A DNA stretch of 64,000 nt, from assembly GCF_030384885.1 (NCBI RefSeq), contig NZ_CP128613.1. One strand, 5' to 3'. This stretch comes from Escherichia coli (GTDB lineage: Bacteria; Pseudomonadota; Gammaproteobacteria; Enterobacterales; Enterobacteriaceae). Below are positions 8,261 through 59,249 of this stretch, in pieces. The first letter of the stretch is position 1. Each line of letters starts with the position of its first letter. A model generated the notes under the pieces. The model was not told where the DNA came from. It saw only the letters and a program-made list of their open reading frames with translations, and made no database searches. Position numbers and translations under genes: made by a program.

Positions 8261-9748
8261 ATGCAATACATCAAGATCCATGCGCTGGATAACGTCGCGG
8301 TTGCTTTAGCAGATTTGGCGGAAGGCACAGAAGTCAGTGTCGATAACCAGATTGTTACGCTGCGCCAGGATGTTGCTCGTGGACATAAATTTGCGTTAAC
8401 GGATATCGCAAAAGGGGCCAACGTCATTAAATATGGCCTGCCGATTGGTTATGCATTGGCGGATATTGCGGCGGGGGAACACGTTCACGCCCACAATACG
8501 CGCACGAATCTGAGCGATCTGGATCAGTATCGCTATCAACCTGATTTTCAGGATCTGCCTGCGCAAGCGGCAGATCGTGAAGTGCAGATCTATCGTCGCG
8601 CGAACGGCGATGTCGGGGTGCGTAATGAGCTGTGGATCCTGCCAACCGTGGGTTGTGTTAACGGCATCGCGCGGCAGATCCAGAACCGTTTCCTGAAAGA
8701 GACCAACAACGCCGAAGGTACTGACGGCGTGTTCCTCTTCAGCCACACCTACGGCTGCTCGCAGCTGGGCGACGATCACATCAATACCCGCACCATGCTG
8801 CAAAATATGGTGCGCCACCCGAACGCGGGCGCAGTGCTGGTGATTGGTCTGGGCTGTGAAAACAACCAGGTTGCCGCATTCCGTGAAACGCTGGGTGATA
8901 TCGATCCTGAACGCGTTCATTTCATGATCTGCCAACAGCAGGATGATGAGATCGAAGCCGGGATCGAGCATTTGCATCAGCTGTATAACGTGATGCGCAA
9001 CGACAAGCGTGAGCCAGGCAAACTCAGCGAACTGAAGTTTGGTCTGGAGTGCGGTGGTTCTGACGGTCTTTCTGGTATTACTGCTAACCCGATGCTGGGG
9101 CGTTTCTCTGACTACGTGATTGCTAACGGCGGTACTACCGTACTGACCGAAGTGCCGGAGATGTTTGGCGCAGAGCAGTTGCTGATGGACCATTGCCGCG
9201 ACGAAGCAACGTTTGAAAAACTGGTCACTATGGTCAACGACTTCAAACAGTACTTTATTGCCCATGACCAGCCGATCTATGAAAACCCATCGCCGGGGAA
9301 CAAAGCGGGCGGTATCACCACGCTGGAAGACAAATCACTTGGCTGTACCCAGAAAGCGGGTTCCAGCGTCGTGGTTGACGTGCTGCGTTACGGCGAGCGT
9401 CTGAAAACGCCGGGGCTGAACTTGTTAAGTGCGCCGGGTAACGATGCCGTAGCGACCAGCGCCCTGGCGGGTGCGGGCTGCCATATGGTGCTGTTCAGTA
9501 CTGGTCGTGGCACGCCGTATGGTGGATTTGTGCCGACGGTGAAAATCGCCACCAACAGTGAACTGGCGGCGAAGAAAAAACACTGGATCGACTTTGACGC
9601 GGGTCAGCTGATCCACGGTAAAGCGATGCCGCAGTTGCTGGAAGAATTTATCGACACCATCGTTGAGTTTGCCAATGGTAAACAAACCTGCAACGAGCGT
9701 AACGACTTCCGCGAACTGGCGATCTTTAAAAGCGGCGTAACGCTATAA
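8261..9748 (+). CDS. uxaA: Altronate dehydratase UxaA (495 aa)
   Basis: ORF track 495 aa MQYIKIHALDNVAVALADLAEGTEV...; immediately downstream of uxaC (operon). Confidence 0.95.
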   Translation: MQYIKIHALDNVAVALADLAEGTEVSVDNQIVTLRQDVARGHKFALTDIAKGANVIKYGLPIGYALADIAAGEHVHAHNTRTNLSDLDQYRYQPDFQDLPAQAADREVQIYRRANGDVGVRNELWILPTVGCVNGIARQIQNRFLKETNNAEGTDGVFLFSHTYGCSQLGDDHINTRTMLQNMVRHPNAGAVLVIGLGCENNQVAAFRETLGDIDPERVHFMICQQQDDEIEAGIEHLHQLYNVMRNDKREPGKLSELKFGLECGGSDGLSGITANPMLGRFSDYVIANGGTTVLTEVPEMFGAEQLLMDHCRDEATFEKLVTMVNDFKQYFIAHDQPIYENPSPGNKAGGITTLEDKSLGCTQKAGSSVVVDVLRYGERLKTPGLNLLSAPGNDAVATSALAGAGCHMVLFSTGRGTPYGGFVPTVKIATNSELAAKKKHWIDFDAGQLIHGKAMPQLLEEFIDTIVEFANGKQTCNERNDFRELAIFKSGVTL

Positions 9749-9772
9749 AGTCGAAATGAGTTGTTAATAAAA

Positions 9773-9808
9773 AACGGCGTTTCATAATGTGAAGCGCCGT
9801 TTGCTTTT
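9773..9808 (+). terminator. Rho-independent terminator after uxaA
   Basis: Hairpin aacggcgtttc/gaagcgccgtt with 7-nt loop, followed by tgcttttcc. Confidence 0.55.
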
Positions 9809-9830
9809 CCATACCTGCTAAGGATTTATC

Positions 9831-10382
9831 ATGACCGCGTATTGGCTGGCCCAGGGCGTGGGTGTCATCGCCTTTCTGATTGGTATCACAACATTTTTCA
9901 ATCGTGACGAACGTCGCTTCAAAAAGCAGCTTTCGGTCTATAGCGCCGTTATTGGCGTACATTTTTTTCTTCTGGGCACCTATCCCGCTGGTGCCAGTGC
10001 CATCCTTAATGCCATTCGTACGCTGATTACCTTACGCACGCGCAGCTTATGGATAATGGCGATCTTCATCGTGCTGACGGGAGGAGTTGGCCTGGCGAAG
10101 TTCCATCATCCCATGGAGCTGCTGCCGGTTATCGGCACGATTGTCAGTACCTGGGCGCTGTTCCGTTGTAAAGGGCTGACCATGCGCTGCGTGATGTGGT
10201 TTTCTACTTGTTGCTGGTTAACTCACAACATTTGGGCCGGGTCGATTGGTGGCACAATGATTGAAGGCAGTTTTCTGCTGATGAATGGCCTGAATATCAT
10301 TCGTTTTTGGCGTATGCAGAGAAGGGGAATTGATCCGTTTAAAGTGGAGAAAACCCCTTCCGCCGTAGACGAAAGGGGCTAA
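9831..10382 (+). CDS. ygjV: Inner membrane protein YgjV (183 aa)
   Basis: ORF track 183 aa MTAYWLAQGVGVIAFLIGITTFFNRDERRFKK...; hydrophobic multi-pass. Confidence 0.85.
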   Translation: MTAYWLAQGVGVIAFLIGITTFFNRDERRFKKQLSVYSAVIGVHFFLLGTYPAGASAILNAIRTLITLRTRSLWIMAIFIVLTGGVGLAKFHHPMELLPVIGTIVSTWALFRCKGLTMRCVMWFSTCCWLTHNIWAGSIGGTMIEGSFLLMNGLNIIRFWRMQRRGIDPFKVEKTPSAVDERG

Positions 10383-10385
10383 GTA

Positions 10386-11630
10386 TTAGTTACGCAGGGC
10401 GCTATTTGCCAGACGATCGTCTTCCGCCTGGCAAGCTGCTGCAGTGAACAGCACGTCAGTTGAAGAGTTCAGCGCGGTTTCGCAAGAGTCCTGCAATACG
10501 CCGATGATAAAGCCGACGGCAACCACCTGCATGGCGATATCGTTCGAAATACCGAACATATTACAGGCCAGCGGGATCAGCAGCAGAGAACCACCTGCCA
10601 CGCCGGACGCACCACAGGCGCACAGAGAAGCCACTACGCTCAACAGCAGCGCCGTTGGTAGATCCACCGGAATACCCAGCGTATTAACCGCAGCCAGCGT
10701 CAACACGGTAATGGTGATTGCTGCGCCCGCCATATTGATCGTTGCACCTAGCGGAATAGAAACGGAATAGGTATCACGATCCAGATTCAGCTTTTCACAC
10801 AGCGCCATATTCACCGGAATGTTCGCCGCAGAGCTGCGGGTGAAGAAGGCGTACACGCCGCTTTCGCGCAGGCACAGCAGCACCAGCGGGAACGGGTTAC
10901 GACGAATTTTCCACCACACCAGCAATGGGTTAACCACCAGCGCCACCAGTAACATACAGCCAACCAGCACGACCAGCAGTTGCGCGTAGCCCCACAGTGT
11001 GGAGAAACCGGTGGTAGCCAGGGTAGAAGAAACCAACCCAAAAATACCGATCGGTGCGAAGCGAATGACCAGTTTCACCATAAAGGTGACGGCATTCGAC
11101 ATATCGTTGATCAGGTTTTTGGTGGTCTCGTTACCATGACGCAGTGCGAAACCGAGGCCAATTGCCCACACCAGAATCCCGATGTAGTTACCTTTCAGCA
11201 GCGCGTCGATGGGGTTGGAAACCATGCTCATTACCAGCCCGCGCATCACTTCGACAATGCCTGACGGCGGCGAAATATCACCCGCGCTACTGGACAAGTG
11301 CAGGGTAGAAGGGAAGGCAAAGCTGAAGACTACTGCGGCCAGAGCAGCAGAGAAGGTGCCCAGTAGATAGAGGAACAAAATAGGACGGATATTGGTTTTC
11401 TGCCCGTGCTGGTGGTTAGCAATAGACGCCATTACCAGCATCAACACCAGGATGGGGGCAACGGCTTTCAGTGCGCCGACGAACAAAGTACCTAACAGAC
11501 CGACAGCTTCCGCCGCCGGTTTTGAGATCCATGCCAGAAGAATCCCCAGAACAAGGCCGACCAGGATTTGTTTTACCAGGCTGCCATGAGCCAGACGCCG
11601 GAATAGCCCCGGTGAACGTTGCGTAGTCAT
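10386..11630 (-). CDS. sstT: Serine/threonine:Na+ symporter SstT (414 aa)
   Basis: ORF track 414 aa [29 protein letters not shown]... matches remembered SstT. Confidence 0.95.
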
Positions 11631-12099
11631 TTTTCGATCCTTTCATTGTGTTGTCGCACATCCCTGGTGCGTTCTGTCGACGCATCTTTCAGGATGTAAC
11701 AAAGTGTTTGCAAGGTCGAGTATAAGGAAAGTTACAGCTTCGGGAAGCGAAAAATGCTGGATTTTAAAGAGATGTCATATTTTGCAACTTAATGGTTACA
11801 TTTGTTTGACATAAACAGAGGGAAGGACTGGCTGCTGAGACTGATTAGATAACATATAGGCAAAACTATTTGGCATATGAGAACTGTTGCGCTCCTGTGA
11901 TGTGCTATGCCATATAAAGTCACTGGCGCAGGGAGCGGCCAATCGCCGCTGCCCCGGCCTCCAGGGCACGCTTCGGTGATTTTGACGCCACTAACACCCA
12001 AGCGATCTTTTTGTAAAGAGCTATAAGTCGGTTACATACTTAATCGCTCATCTTTGTCTGGAATGAGTTATCACCCGTAGTGGCTTAATATACAGCGAA

Positions 12100-13065
12100 T
12101 TATCCCACCCGCTGCTTATCATGCCGATAATTCACCCAGGCGTTGATAATAAACGTCATCACCAGAATGCCAAACACCACGCCCAGCGAAACGGCGATCG
12201 GAATATGGTAGAAATCGACAATTAGCATCTTGATACCGATAAACACCAGAATCACCGCCAGACCATATTTGAGCATCGAGAAACGTTCTGCTACGCCCGC
12301 CAACAGGAAATACATCGCACGCAGGCCGAGGATCGCAAACAGGTTTGAGGTCAGCACAATAAACGGATCGGTGGTCACGGCGAAAATAGCCGGAATGCTA
12401 TCCACGGCGAAAATCACGTCGCTCAACTCCACCAGAATCAGTACCAGCATCAGCGGCGTGGCATACAACAAACCATTCTTACGCACAAAGAAATGCTCGT
12501 TGTCGATGGTGTCGGTCATGCGCAAATGACCGCGCAGCCAGCGCACCAGCGGCTTGTCACCAATACCTGATTCATCTTCATGAGCCAGCGCCATCTTCAC
12601 GCCAGTAAACAGCAGGAAGGCACCGAAGATATACAGGATCCAGTCGAACTGCGAAATCAGCCAGCTGCCAGTGAAGATCATGATGGTACGCAGAACAATC
12701 GCCCCGAGTACGCCATACACGAGCACGCGGCGTTGTAATGCCGCCGGAACAGAGAAATAGCTGAACAACATCAGCCAGACGAAGACGTTATCGACCGCCA
12801 GTGATTTCTCAATCAGATAACCCGTGAGGAAGGCCAATGCCTGAGGGTCCGCGACTTCGCGCCCCTGTGTCTGCGCCAGATACCACCAGAAAGCGGCATT
12901 AAACAATAACGACAGTGTCACCCAGACCAGCGACCAGGCCGCAGCCTGTTTCATGGTCATGGCATGTGCCCCGCGACGCCCCTGCAACAACAGGTCGATA
13001 GCCAGCATAATGACGACAACAACAGCGAATCCGCCCCATAGCAACGGCGTGCCGACAGTATTCAT
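12100..13065 (-). CDS. alx: TerC-family membrane protein Alx (321 aa)
   Basis: ORF track 321 aa [37 protein letters not shown]... Confidence 0.9.
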
Positions 13066-13300
13066 AGAAGTTCCTTACACATAAAAAAACGGCCAACGTC
13101 GGAAGACGTCAGCCGCTGCTTTTTATGCATAGACCTCGCCTTCCGGCAAGGTCTCACTTACAACAAAAAAGGAATACGTCTGCGTATTCCTTTCGGGTTG
13201 CCCGGTGACCGGATGTGGTTTTTCACACATCGTAATGACGATCGACCGGCAATGAAGTTACTCCCCTTTGCAGGTAACAAAGTATGACAGACCATTCGGT
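13066..13300 (-). promoter_or_regulatory. alx 5' leader carrying a yybP-ykoY-type (Mn2+/pH-responsive) riboswitch element
   Basis: Minus-strand leader contains the conserved AAAGGGGAGUA motif (complement of 13255..13270) plus several hairpins; sits between ygjR stop and alx start, as in the described alx PRE/SraF leader. Confidence 0.6.
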
Positions 13301-13347
13301 CAGTCAATGGTCTGTTACATACCTTTTACACTGTTTTACTTTGGCTA

Positions 13348-14334
13348 TTATAGTTTTACGCTATCTGCCGGAAAAATCACCCCGGTCTGGCGGCGGATCT
13401 CGGTCAGCAGCCTGGCGGTGATACGACTGACCGCCAGCCCTGGATGATCTACCAGATGTTCATCCACCAGGGTAGCGAACAGCTCTGCTTCGTACAGCAT
13501 GGTATTAATATGCTGCGGCTGGGTAAGATCCTGCATCTGGCTGCCGCGCGGCACATAGCAAACTTTCTGGCATTCAGACAGTTTTTCAATCACCAGCGAT
13601 CCCGCTTCGCCCTGAATCTCACTTGCCAGCACAGAATCACTGACCTTTGAGTGCTGCAAGGTAACGCTGAAATCACCGTAATCCATCACCACCACGCCGT
13701 GGGCATCCACACCACTTGCCAGCAAACTGGCGGTTGCCTGCACGCTTTTCGGTTCACCAAATAACGCCACCGCCGACGCCAGGCAGTAAAAGCCGATATC
13801 CATAATTGAACCGTTAGAGAATGCTGGATTAAAGGTGTTGGGATTCTCGCCGTCCAGATAACGCTGATATCGCGAGGAATACTGGCAATAGTTGAAAAAG
13901 ACTTTACGCAATTTGCCAACTTTCGGCAGTACCTGGCGTAACAAATGGAAATTCGGTAGGCTGGCGGTTTTAAATGCCTCAAACAGCACCACCTGATTTT
14001 CCCGCGCACAGGCAATGGCGGCATCCACTTCCGCCAGATTCGACGCCAGCGGTTTCTCGCAAATCACATGAATTTTATGGCTAAGGAAAAGTCGTGTCTG
14101 GGGAAAATGCAGGGCATTCGGGCTGGCAATATACACCGCGTCAATAGCATCACTTTCTGCCATCGCTTCCAGCGATGTAAACAGATGCTCGACAGAAAAA
14201 TCATTGGCGAAGTGCTGGGCCTGTTCAAGGCTGCGGGAATAGACAGCGGTTAACTTGTATTTACCGCTCTCATGGGCGGCCTCGACGAACTGGCGGGTGA
14301 TCCAGTTCGTGCCAATCACAGCGAAACGTATCAT
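13348..14334 (-). CDS. ygjR: Gfo/Idh/MocA-family NAD(P)-dependent oxidoreductase YgjR (328 aa)
   Basis: ORF 13348..14352; start at MIRFAVIGTNWITRQFVEAA (Rossmann N-terminus), ATG 14332..14334. Confidence 0.85.
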   Translation of the reverse strand: MIRFAVIGTNWITRQFVEAAHESGKYKLTAVYSRSLEQAQHFANDFSVEHLFTSLEAMAESDAIDAVYIASPNALHFPQTRLFLSHKIHVICEKPLASNLAEVDAAIACARENQVVLFEAFKTASLPNFHLLRQVLPKVGKLRKVFFNYCQYSSRYQRYLDGENPNTFNPAFSNGSIMDIGFYCLASAVALFGEPKSVQATASLLASGVDAHGVVVMDYGDFSVTLQHSKVSDSVLASEIQGEAGSLVIEKLSECQKVCYVPRGSQMQDLTQPQHINTMLYEAELFATLVDEHLVDHPGLAVSRITARLLTEIRRQTGVIFPADSVKL

Positions 14335-14412
14335 AACGCGTGGATACTCCATAAAGGGATTCTGCCGTCAATGTAGCACGCCTTTTTCATCTTCGACGTG
14401 CGCAGATACGCA

Positions 14413-15105
14413 TTATTCTTTCGCCGGACAGCCATGCTCGCTAAACGGCCCAATCATGACCGACGGCCCGAGATATTTCGGCTGTCGATGGAGGATTTTC
14501 GCGTCAATCACTGCGCTGACGCGAGCGAGTTTCTCCCGCAGCTGAGTATAAAAACCATGTTTCATATTCAGGTCTGGTGCGTTAAACCCGATGGCATCGA
14601 TGCCGTACTGTTTTGCCAGCCAGATGGCGCGTTGGTTATGAAATTCTTGCGAAATAATAGTGATATGGCTTTCACCAAACACCTTTTTGGCACGCACCAC
14701 CGAATCAAGCGTTGAGAATCCGGCATAGTCGCAGAAGATGACTTTTGCGGGTACGCCTTTAGCGATCAAAGCCTGCTGCATGCCTGAGGCTTCATCGTAA
14801 TTTTTACGTCCGTTATCGCCGCTCACTAGTAGCCATTTCACTTTTCCGGCGTGGTACAACTCTGCTGCGGTATCAATACGTCGGGTAAAGTAGCGATTAC
14901 CCGGCCTCGCCCCCAGCAATAAACCCACGTTACGCGCCGGAACGGCGTTGACATCGCTCCTGGTCAGCTGCTTGCTGGCGTTGACCATAACGCGATCGGC
15001 AATAAAAATGGTCGCTCCTGCTATAAGCAACAATAAACAGCCAAGCTTTAGAGTCCGGCGAGAAAAACAAATACGGAGAAGAAGGCGGGCAAAGGCGCGC
15101 AGCAT
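14413..15105 (-). CDS. ygjQ: DUF218-family protein YgjQ (230 aa)
   Basis: ORF track 230 aa [32 protein letters not shown]... with N-terminal membrane anchor. Confidence 0.85.
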
Positions 15106-15768: not shown

Positions 15769-16905
15769 ATGAGCCACTTAGACAACGGTTTCCGTTCACT
15801 GACACTACAACGTTTTCCGGCGACGGATGACGTTAACCCGCTACAGGCGTGGGAAGCGGCAGATGAATATTTGCTGCAACAGTTGGACGACACAGAAATC
15901 CGCGGCCCGGTGTTAATCCTGAATGATGCCTTTGGGGCGTTAAGTTGTGCGCTGGCGGAACATAAGCCGTACAGCATTGGCGACTCATACATCAGCGAAC
16001 TGGCGACGCGCGAGAATTTACGCCTCAACGGGATTGATGAATCGAGCGTGAAGTTTCTCGACAGCACCGCTGACTACCCGCAACAGCCGGGCGTGGTGCT
16101 GATCAAAGTGCCGAAAACACTGGCATTGCTGGAACAGCAACTGCGCGCATTGCGCAAAGTAGTCACGCCGGATACACGTATTATTGCTGGTGCTAAAGCC
16201 CGTGACATTCACACCTCCACGCTGGAACTGTTCGAAAAAGTGCTCGGCCCGACCACCACCACACTGGCATGGAAGAAAGCGCGCCTGATTAACTGCACTT
16301 TCAACGAGCCGCCGCTGGTTGATGCACCGCAGACCGTTAGCTGGAAGCTGGAGGGTACTGACTGGACTATCCACAACCATGCGAATGTCTTCTCACGCAC
16401 CGGGCTTGATATTGGCGCGCGCTTCTTTATGCAGCATCTGCCAGAGAATCTCGAGGGTGAGGTTGTCGATCTCGGTTGTGGTAACGGCGTTATTGGCCTG
16501 ACGCTGCTTGATAAAAACCCGCAGGCGAAAGTGGTGTTTGTCGATGAATCACCAATGGCGGTTGCTTCCAGCCGTTTGAATGTTGAAACCAACATGCCAG
16601 AGGCGTTGGATCGCTGCGAGTTTATGATCAACAACGCGCTCTCCGGCGTGGAGCCGTTCCGCTTTAATGCTGTGCTCTGCAACCCGCCGTTTCACCAGCA
16701 ACATGCACTGACCGATAACGTTGCCTGGGAAATGTTCCACCACGCGCGCCGCTGCCTGAAAATCAACGGCGAGCTGTATATCGTTGCCAACCGTCATCTG
16801 GATTACTTCCATAAACTGAAGAAAATTTTTGGCAACTGCACCACCATTGCTACGAATAATAAATTTGTGGTGCTGAAAGCGGTGAAACTGGGGCGTCGTC
16901 GGTAA
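15769..16905 (+). CDS. rlmG: 23S rRNA m2G1835 methyltransferase RlmG (378 aa)
   Basis: ORF 15394..16905; start at [21 protein letters not shown] with GGAGGG Shine-Dalgarno; SAM-methyltransferase motifs ([12 protein letters not shown]). Confidence 0.9.
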
Positions 16906-20519: not shown

Positions 20520-21012
<493 letters not shown>

Positions 21013-36549: not shown

Positions 36550-36625
36550 TGGTGGCCCCTGCTGGACTTGAACCAGCGACCAAGCGATTATGAGTCGCCT
36601 GCTCTAACCACTGAGCTAAGGGGCC
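36550..36625 (-). tRNA. ileX: tRNA with CAU anticodon, ileX-type (tRNA-Ile2, lysidine-modified) including 3' CCA
   Basis: Reverse complement reads GGCCCCTTAGCTCAGTGGTTAGAGCAGGCGACTCATAATCGCTTGGTCGCTGGTTCAAGTCCAGCAGGGGCCACCA; cloverleaf with CTCATAA anticodon loop. Confidence 0.9.
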
Positions 36626-58647: not shown

Positions 58648-58724
58648 CCGGAAAGCGGTTCACAGATCTCGCTTCGAACCAGGCAGGCCTATTGACGCTG
58701 TTGTTTTTTCAACCTAAAGTAAAG

Positions 58725-58872
58725 GAACAAGGGTAAGGGAGGATTTCTCCCCCCTCTGAATTGGTTGTTAATAAGCCTGGAAACTTACTAGTAACAACAC
58801 AATCAGTATGATGACGAACTTCATCATAACCCTTTCCTTATGCAAGGCCCCTTCCTCGGGAGGGGCTTTCCC
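58725..58872 (+). ncRNA. sibE: Sib-type antisense sRNA (antitoxin of Ibs toxin), unit nearest hldE; 5' end approximate
   Basis: Plus-strand region fully antisense to the ibs ORF, ending in hairpin gcccct-tcctcggg-aggggc followed by tttcccgttt; plus-strand ORFs here (MMTNFIITLS...) are not taken as coding. Confidence 0.45.
58768..58827 (-). CDS. ibsE: Ibs-family type I toxin, 19-aa hydrophobic peptide MMKFVIILIVLLLVSFQAY
   Basis: Hand-translated minus-strand ORF (ATG ATG AAG TTC ... TAT TAA); typical Ibs sequence; symbol assigned from proximity to hldE and may be swapped with ibsD. Confidence 0.7.
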   Translation of the reverse strand: MMKFVIILIVLLLVSFQAY

Positions 58873-59101
58873 GTTTCAGCCCCTTGCTGGCTCCCCGATT
58901 GTTGATGAGCGCCGGACCCCGCGCAATGCTTTCCCTGATGCAGTTTTCTCTTCCCCGAGTCGGCTCGCAAAACGCTGTAACAACCTGATCATTTGCAGTT
59001 TTTTGTGGAACACAGATATAAAAAATCCCCGGTTTTTTGGGCCAGGGATATGTGTTAATGAAACCTTCTTGACGCTGATTTTTTTTCAACCTAAAGTAAA
59101 G

Positions 59102-59249
59102 GAACAAGGGTAAGGGAGGATTTCTCCCCCCTCTGAATTGGTTGTTAGTAAGTCGGGAAACTTAACAGTAACAACACAATCAGTATGATGACGAACTTCA
59201 TCATAACCCTTTCCTTATGCAAGGCCCCTTCCTCGGGAGGGGCTTTCCC
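59102..59249 (+). ncRNA. sibD: Sib-type antisense sRNA, second unit; 5' end approximate
   Basis: Second copy of the repeat; same terminator hairpin at 59224..59243. Confidence 0.45.
59145..59204 (-). CDS. ibsD: Ibs-family type I toxin, 19-aa peptide MMKFVIILIVLLLLSFPTY
   Basis: Hand-translated minus-strand ORF in the second repeat unit; differs from the first copy at four residues. Confidence 0.7.
   Translation of the reverse strand: MMKFVIILIVLLLLSFPTY

Follow-up and report, generated by a model that had tools for sequence, protein, structure and literature searches.

The 469 bp that separate alx from sstT in the Escherichia coli chromosome stretch studied here (64,000 nucleotides, hereafter the window) are best explained, with a probability of about 0.8, as a functional sstT control region joined to unrelated strain-variable DNA that contains the relic of a dispersed repeat. 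alx occupies positions 12100..13065 and sstT positions 10386..11630, both on the minus strand. The intergenic gap is 11631..12099 and, in the direction of transcription, begins after the alx stop (12100) and ends before the sstT ATG (11630). These gene coordinates agree with the 469 bp given by a first-pass annotation, made from the sequence alone, which considered the gap long for a simple terminator plus promoter and suggested that it may hold a long sstT 5′ UTR or an unannotated small RNA. All features of the gap described below are on the minus strand. The gap consists of two parts, i.e., an sstT-side part (11631-11815, ~185 bp, ~40% of the gap) and an alx-side part (11816-12099, ~284 bp); this anatomy is read directly from the sequence.

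The polymorphism of the gap is also observed directly. A 611-bp query across the gap matched 5,419 of the 5,426 complete E. coli genomes, with a query coverage of at least 80% in only 1,666 of these 5,419. Four gap sizes are found among the E. coli representatives that were fetched: 323, 398, 469 and 615 bp, the 398-bp allele being that of K-12 MG1655. The 469-bp allele, i.e., the window type, is present in 7 genomes out of 5,426; strains 2013C-4282 and R32_14_1F are examples of its carriers. The 615-bp allele is carried by ~31% of the 5,419 genomes (~1,659 besides the carriers of the 469-bp allele), and ~69% of them, K-12 included, have unrelated sequence in place of 11816-12099. The alignment of the alleles (alignment A1) shows that 11631-11815 is near-invariant in all four classes, with scattered single-base differences only, and that, in the 398- and 323-bp alleles, an unrelated sequence stands where the window has 11816-12099. 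The closest complete genome to the window is that of E. coli strain 2013C-4282 (99.2% identity over 20 kb). No match to the variable segment exists among 50,697 phage records. Matches to plasmids were discarded: all of them are chromosomal fragments filed as plasmids.

The extra length of the gap is due to these ~284 bp of strain-variable DNA, repeat relic included. On both sides of the relic the DNA is allele-specific. The spacer placed right after the alx stop (12024..12099) is found only in the 469- and 615-bp alleles (A1), has no matches at other loci and is unstructured (fold z = +0.33). The spacer between the relic and the conserved sstT block (11816..11883; A1) has a fold z of +0.50. 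E. coli is already known for alternative intergenic alleles between conserved genes: switched or replaced intergenic regions of this kind were reportedly described by Oren et al. 2014 and Thorpe et al. 2018. The present case resembles them by its conserved flanking genes and by unrelated alternative alleles segregating in the species, but here the replacement ends before the promoter, and the sstT control region is thus untouched. The alx-side 284 bp would be dispensable strain-variable DNA, probably non-functional.

The functional part of the gap is already known from K-12. According to the sstT entries of supplement file 3 of Mendoza-Vargas et al. (PMC2760140), a transcription start site (TSS) is mapped in K-12 83 nt upstream of the ATG. 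The study reports two sstT TSSs, among which the −83 start is the one used here; the −10 box is given as 'tttcCTTATACTcgac' / 'CTTATACT' and the −35 region as 'CGCTTCCCG'. The promoter boxes and the 83-nt leader are identical in the window and in K-12 (A1). The −35 region CGCTTCCCG is localized at 11741..11749 and the −10 hexamer TATACT at 11719..11724, within a conserved promoter and upstream region that spans 11714..11815 (columns about 506-610 of A1). When the K-12 mapping is transferred via this sequence identity, the sstT TSS is placed at 11713 and the 5′ UTR (83 nt) at 11631..11713, with the limit that the TSS comes from a strain whose upstream sequence differs beyond −185. More precisely, the window and K-12 are near-identical from the ATG to about −185 (boxes, TSS position, CA-rich site and Shine-Dalgarno sequence), whereas they are wholly different upstream of about −185.

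The leader contains, from its 5′ side: (i) a predicted stem-loop (CAUCC...GGGAUG, 11659..11696, from the fold centroid), not significant alone (z = −1.52); (ii) a CA-rich stretch, GCGACAACACAAUG, at 11644..11657; (iii) a Shine-Dalgarno sequence, AAGGA, at 11638..11642, 7 nt ahead of the sstT ATG. An Rfam «Zeta-pan» match at 11659-11696 was rejected as a chance match to the leader hairpin (18.5 bits for a gathering score of 56.7). The R1 region of GcvB prefers C/A-rich targets, and for this reason the CA-rich stretch is read as a GcvB site. Inside this stretch, ACAACACAA (11646-11654, near the ribosome-binding site) is presumably complementary to GcvB R1. The likely GcvB R1 pairing site is 11644-11657, just upstream of the ribosome-binding site; we infer the exact pairing from the sequence. 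sstT is a verified GcvB R1 target (PMC9299463), and the GcvB site on its mRNA is located in the 5′ UTR (PMC11347164). It moreover ranks among the strongest verified GcvB targets, its mRNA being more prone to decay by RNase E once GcvB is bound (PMC9299463, PMC11347164, PMC7059120).

The window therefore has, in a form identical to K-12, a promoter and a TSS yielding a 5′ UTR with a GcvB site. The conserved sigma-70 promoter of sstT itself would drive its transcription, with a start at ~11713, and GcvB, with Hfq, would pair in the 83-nt leader, so that translation would be blocked and the mRNA exposed to RNase E. The GcvB control, as the TSS, is taken from the K-12 literature via sequence identity. 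As to the long sstT 5′ UTR proposed in the first-pass annotation, a leader does exist in the gap, as expected from the K-12 TSS at −83, but it extends over 11631-11713 only, i.e., 18% of the gap, and thus does not account for the gap length.

The question of a longer sstT leader comes back with the 3′ end of alx. In the K-12 allele, two hairpins with T-runs on the alx strand resemble terminators; they sit just ahead of the conserved block (L026, 3695-3756). No terminator-like site is found on the alx strand in either the window allele or the 615-bp allele. For this reason, alx 3′-end formation may differ between strains. The K-12 gap allele is also the one that contains hairpin/G-quadruplex (HPGQ) repeats nos. 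34 and 35 (PMC5100583). In the window, a crude pattern scan gives 0 intrinsic terminators inside 11631-12099 on either strand; the GC-rich hairpin described below (11925-11959) is followed by GUGACUUUAUAUGG, without U-run, and is not of the kind expected for an alx intrinsic terminator.

Since the terminator-like hairpins of K-12 are absent here, read-through may give a longer sstT-containing transcript: alx and sstT would be partly co-transcribed in the 469-bp allele, through the variable segment, and some sstT mRNA would have a leader of ~470 nt including the relic. This explanation, to which the hairpin without U-tract also lends weight, is the most serious rival and is compatible with the main one, but it is judged rather unlikely: the conserved sigma-70 promoter is intact, with a TSS mapped at −83; the terminator scan is crude, and Rho-dependent termination is beyond judgement from sequence. 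Moreover, alx expression is gated by its own leader, so that read-through would usually be low. This E. coli alx leader is usually counted in the yybP-ykoY family (manganese riboswitch); the region upstream of alx (13066-13347) has no Rfam match to this family, even at E ≤ 10.

Promoter and terminator scans bear also on the unannotated small RNA suggested for the gap. No sigma-70-like promoter pattern was found by the scan inside 11631-12099 on either strand. Two promoter-like matches sit at the alx 3′ end, and their number equals the shuffle expectation. The gap thus contains no pair formed by an own promoter and a Rho-independent terminator, on either strand. The Rfam scan, put forward as a check in the first-pass annotation, gives nothing credible in the gap (E-value scan of 9000-14500, gap at E ≤ 10, whole window at the gathering threshold). 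Over its full length, the gap has a fold of no more than chance stability (z = −1.69). The suggestion of a small RNA is therefore not retained, the hairpin that accompanied it being part of a deletion-damaged repeat, as described now.

A blastn search with 11822-12099 alone as query gives matches at 15,973 places in 5,425 genomes (median 3, maximum 8 per genome). The part shared by the matches is 11884-12023 (query 77-216). The segment 11884..12023 (140 bp) is a truncated, «short-form» copy of this dispersed repeat: it has 76-92% identity to the dusC-yohP and aqpZ-lysO copies (local BLAST), the aligned length being 100 nt or more. BLAST of the 64-kb window reveals no second copy in it. The GC-rich hairpin that had been noticed at about 11929..11955 is real and slightly larger, i.e., 11925..11959. 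It is stable with reference to shuffled sequences (−27.7 kcal/mol, z = −4.15, 0 of 200 shuffles equally stable). The helices closest to it are P4 helices of the Escherichia repeat; its homologue there is the GGGGGCGGC...GCCGCCCCC helix, with compensatory changes among other copies (columns 206-231 of the consensus fold). On this homology, the hairpin is the shortened GC helix of the relic, i.e., the remnant of the fourth helix (P4) of the repeat.

Two deletions are directly seen when the relic is aligned with the 615-bp allele (L002). The first one, internal, is of 135 bp; its junction is at 11955..11956, and GGGGC direct repeats flank it in the long allele. Both GGA-loop hairpins were lost with it, as was one strand (3′) of the closing stem, so that the other one (5′), GGCGUCAAAAUCACCGAAGCG, is kept in the window without partner. 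The second one is of 11 bp, with a junction at 11937..11938 between CCCTGCGC direct repeats (pairwise alignment). A deletion of equal length at the 11-bp site occurs independently in another repeat copy (L023), and by eye the short aqpZ-lysO copy (L006) gives the same reading at this site. From the complete set of helices, only the GC hairpin and the sequences of the 3′ helix survive in the window. The hairpin targeted by an insertion sequence (see below) is also lost. The large-deletion junctions appear different by eye, i.e., CCGGGG|GTGCAGG in the short form at aqpZ-lysO and GGGGC|AGCGGC in the window, and for this reason the short forms at alx-sstT and aqpZ-lysO are probably independent decay events. 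The reverse reading, in which the 146 extra bases of the 615-bp allele would be an insertion, was rejected on two grounds: orphan half-stems persist in the short form, and the short forms at the two loci have apparently different junctions, flanked by short direct repeats.

Judged by its sequence, the window copy is thus a relic and not an intact member of the repeat. In the window lineage, slippage between short direct repeats rich in G/C would have produced the deletions of 135 bp and 11 bp, which left the GC hairpin and unpaired half-stems of a ~290-bp repeat. The relic is most likely inert. At most, with no canonical alx terminator in this allele, its hairpin may shield the 3′ end of alx or slow down read-through; we infer this lack of function, as well as any terminator or stabiliser role, from the sequence features described above. 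Nevertheless, the relic 11884-12023 folds better than shuffled sequences (z = −2.77), which leaves room for a residual role at the RNA level.

The intact form of the repeat is ~290 bp long. Besides alx-sstT, copies are found in the dusC-yohP, aqpZ-lysO, copA-ybaP and efeU-putP intergenic regions. A further copy lies downstream of a gene with TerC, CBS and CorC domains, near a gene with an AsmA domain; this locus is probably yegH-asmA. K-12 has copies at dusC-yohP and aqpZ-lysO and none at alx-sstT; its two copies, located at MG1655 2229119-2229406 and about 915019-915283, carry no annotation in the record of that strain. A pattern scan of one genome per species recovers intact copies from E. 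coli, E. albertii, E. whittamii, further Escherichia lineages and Pseudescherichia vulneris; as the scan pattern is strict, this distribution is a lower bound. In the literature searched, nothing usable was found on a published name for the repeat, on dusC-yohP or on CsrA CLIP data there.

The structure of the repeat and its covariation are shown by folding and alignment. The long-form K-12 dusC-yohP copy has a folding energy of −151.8 kcal/mol (z = −4.43). The consensus fold of 12 repeat copies (alignment A2) has 75 predicted base pairs, 13 of them with compensatory double changes, e.g., GGCGGCGGC/GCCGCC vs. GGAGGAGGC/GTCCTCC in the GC hairpin and CCCAC/GTGGG vs. CGCGC/GCGCG in the first hairpin. 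The architecture comprises: (i) a closing stem of ~22 bp; (ii) two adjacent hairpins enclosed by this stem, with loops CAUGGAUG and ACAGGGAY; (iii) on the 3′ side, the GC hairpin; (iv) one more helix.

Within the same intergenic region, copies are found in opposite orientations and with different flanks, at dusC-yohP (L005 vs. L010) as well as at aqpZ-lysO (L030 and L031 vs. L007 and L037). The K-12 aqpZ-lysO copy is antisense to both flanking genes. From such arrangements the repeat copies appear recombinationally active or mobile. It must also be mentioned that a contig filed under «Bacillus sp.» (NZ_JABWSY010000051.1, L025, 583 bp, coverage 0.72) carries the Escherichia repeat; this is almost certainly a contamination.

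The repeat shares with REP/BIME elements and with HPGQ repeats its short, GC-rich, hairpin-forming, intergenic, multi-copy character and its variable presence between strains. It differs from REP/BIME by its copy number, ~3 per genome and not hundreds. It has no apparent resemblance to the REP consensus, an imperfect palindrome of 35-40 nt. Matches to naRNA4, a REP-derived Rfam family, are found in the window at 20580-20959 and none in the gap.

A closer likeness is with the TwoAYGGAY RNA (RF01731). This motif consists of two hairpins with AYGGAY loops, closed by an often very long P1 stem (Weinberg et al. 2010, PMC2864571, supplements). Several dispersed copies from Psychromonas ingrahamii, a gamma-proteobacterium, are part of its alignment; their loops are ACAUGGAUGU and ACAGGGACGU (PMC2864571). 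The GGA loops of the motif have led to the proposal that it binds CsrA (PMC4333381). Five copies of the Escherichia repeat, at different loci, match the full-length Rfam model on the same strand, with 30.9-36.9 bits and E = 0.007-0.17; the intact copies thus score below the gathering score of 43 bits. They share with TwoAYGGAY the long closing stem, the two adjacent hairpins and the several dispersed copies per genome. They differ from it by the second loop, which is AGGGAY instead of AYGGAY (the first one is AUGGAU), by two extra 3′ helices and by their score (31-37 bits vs. 43). The E. coli loops seem to resemble the CsrA SELEX consensus, RUACARGGAUGU. Because of full-length matches at five loci with scores under the threshold, the Escherichia element is a probable divergent relative of TwoAYGGAY rather than a demonstrated member, as far as model scores can tell. 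On the contrary, the gap of the window has no match to TwoAYGGAY, even at E ≤ 10: both AYGGAY-type hairpins lie inside the 135-bp deletion, and the long P1 stem has lost its 3′ strand. The relic is a new, though damaged, copy of a repeat of a known kind, i.e., small structured intergenic repeats, probably of the TwoAYGGAY type.

That the relic, or its opposite strand, encodes an independent small RNA is very unlikely. The idea draws on the folding of the relic (z = −2.77), on the resemblance of its intact relatives to TwoAYGGAY together with their covariation, and on the antisense reads observed in the sstT 5′ UTR in an EHEC study (PMC7486766). The EHEC strain background may lack the 469-bp allele, since a sampled ~5.5-Mb genome of possible O157 type shows the pattern of the 398-bp gap, i.e., of K-12 size. 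Against this idea, promoter-like and terminator-like signals are lacking inside the gap, there is no Rfam match there even at E ≤ 10, and the two hairpins and the closing stem that define the motif are deleted in the window. Moreover, only 7 of 5,426 genomes carry the 469-bp allele, and the segment as such is absent from most strains.

The only open reading frame listed in the gap (11789..12001, 70 aa) had been considered unconvincing by the first-pass annotation, rightly so: its start codon is TTG, and no Shine-Dalgarno-like sequence precedes it. Its frame is uninterrupted over 70 codons in the window, which is the first argument for a real small protein encoded by it or by another small ORF of the gap. 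The second one is that the RefSeq annotation (PGAP) places a 100-aa «hypothetical protein», WP_001426202.1, over the repeat of the 615-bp allele in many genomes (e.g., L008, 709-1011). But stops break the 70-aa frame in the 615-bp allele (L002) and in other repeat copies (L005, L006, L007); it is neither conserved nor preceded by a ribosome-binding site. Furthermore, neither the 70-aa ORF nor the 100-aa protein has a Pfam match, and the ORF spans a non-coding repeat and exists solely through the deletions. It is thus extremely improbable that a small protein is encoded there, and the 70-aa ORF is judged, from the sequence comparison, to be a spurious by-product of deletions in the repeat. As to WP_001426202.1, the absence of a Pfam match and its position on a non-coding structured repeat make it probably a false gene call. 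More generally, pipelines sometimes annotate a hypothetical protein over the repeat, and such calls are probably false.

Intact copies of the repeat are also associated with an insertion sequence. In strain N3, at copA-ybaP (L013, 2828-4214), a 1,386-bp IS110-family element is inserted in the loop of the second hairpin of the repeat. The insertion point is ACAGGGAT|IS|GTTACC, for a target ACAGGGAT|GTTACCTC. The element encodes a 341-aa transposase (WP_000868863.1) with a 275-nt non-coding tail 3′ of the gene, and it has sub-terminal inverted repeats, ATGGACGCTCC/GGAGCGTCCAT. The repeat-IS junction is present in 174 of 5,426 E. coli genomes. The position of insertion is identical in 10 of the 10 sampled places that encode this transposase, in at least four different repeat copies; as the same point is used at all of them, the intact repeat looks like a specific target of this IS110-family element. 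REP is the target of IS621. The two cases are alike in that a small repeat serves as the specific target of an IS110-family element.

In the non-coding tail of the element, a 9-mer, GAGGTAACA, is complementary to the right target flank TGTTACCTC, and a 7-mer, CGTTTTA, is identical to the left target flank. This complementarity is only suggestive of a guide of the bridge/seek-RNA type, since a chance match of 9 nt has a probability of ~0.06 (rough estimate). Hybrid junctions, i.e., lysO|IS|yohP and dusC|IS|aqpZ, are observed in several genomes (L027, L035, L036, L038, L040). They imply that ~1.3 Mb have been inverted between the repeat/IS copies located near 915 kb and 2,229 kb (K-12 coordinates), two sites that are roughly symmetrical about the replication terminus. 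Judging from these junctions, large chromosomal inversions seem to use the repeat as a substrate.

Elsewhere in the window, the Rfam matches above the gathering threshold correspond to the ES036 sRNA, four tandem naRNA4 (REP-derived) units, a tRNA, two Sib antitoxin RNAs and an FMN riboswitch (464-504, 20580-20959, 36553-36625, 58692-59219 and 62686-62834). All of them are expected in this part of the E. coli chromosome.

The comparison of the gap with these known systems leads to the conclusion that it is ordinary and that no new gene is needed, since its functional part is known, its repeat is of a known kind and its allele pattern is known in E. coli. For the window itself the finding is of little importance: a known sstT control region and a decaying repeat in swappable intergenic DNA. 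A broader view of the family may be proposed, though it is improbable: the repeats would form an unrecognised Escherichia branch of TwoAYGGAY, transcribed as 3′-UTR or stand-alone RNAs, with GGA hairpins binding CsrA, and would serve in addition as the dedicated landing site of an IS1111-type, bridge-RNA-guided element of the IS110 family, the window relic keeping a residual effect. If this were true, the presence, absence or decay of a repeat copy between alx and sstT would alter alx 3′-end formation and sstT expression between strains. Apart from this view, an Escherichia repeat of low copy number and conserved structure, akin to the orphan TwoAYGGAY motif, provides a tractable handle, in E. 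coli, on that RNA motif, and also a handle on target choice by IS110-family recombinases.
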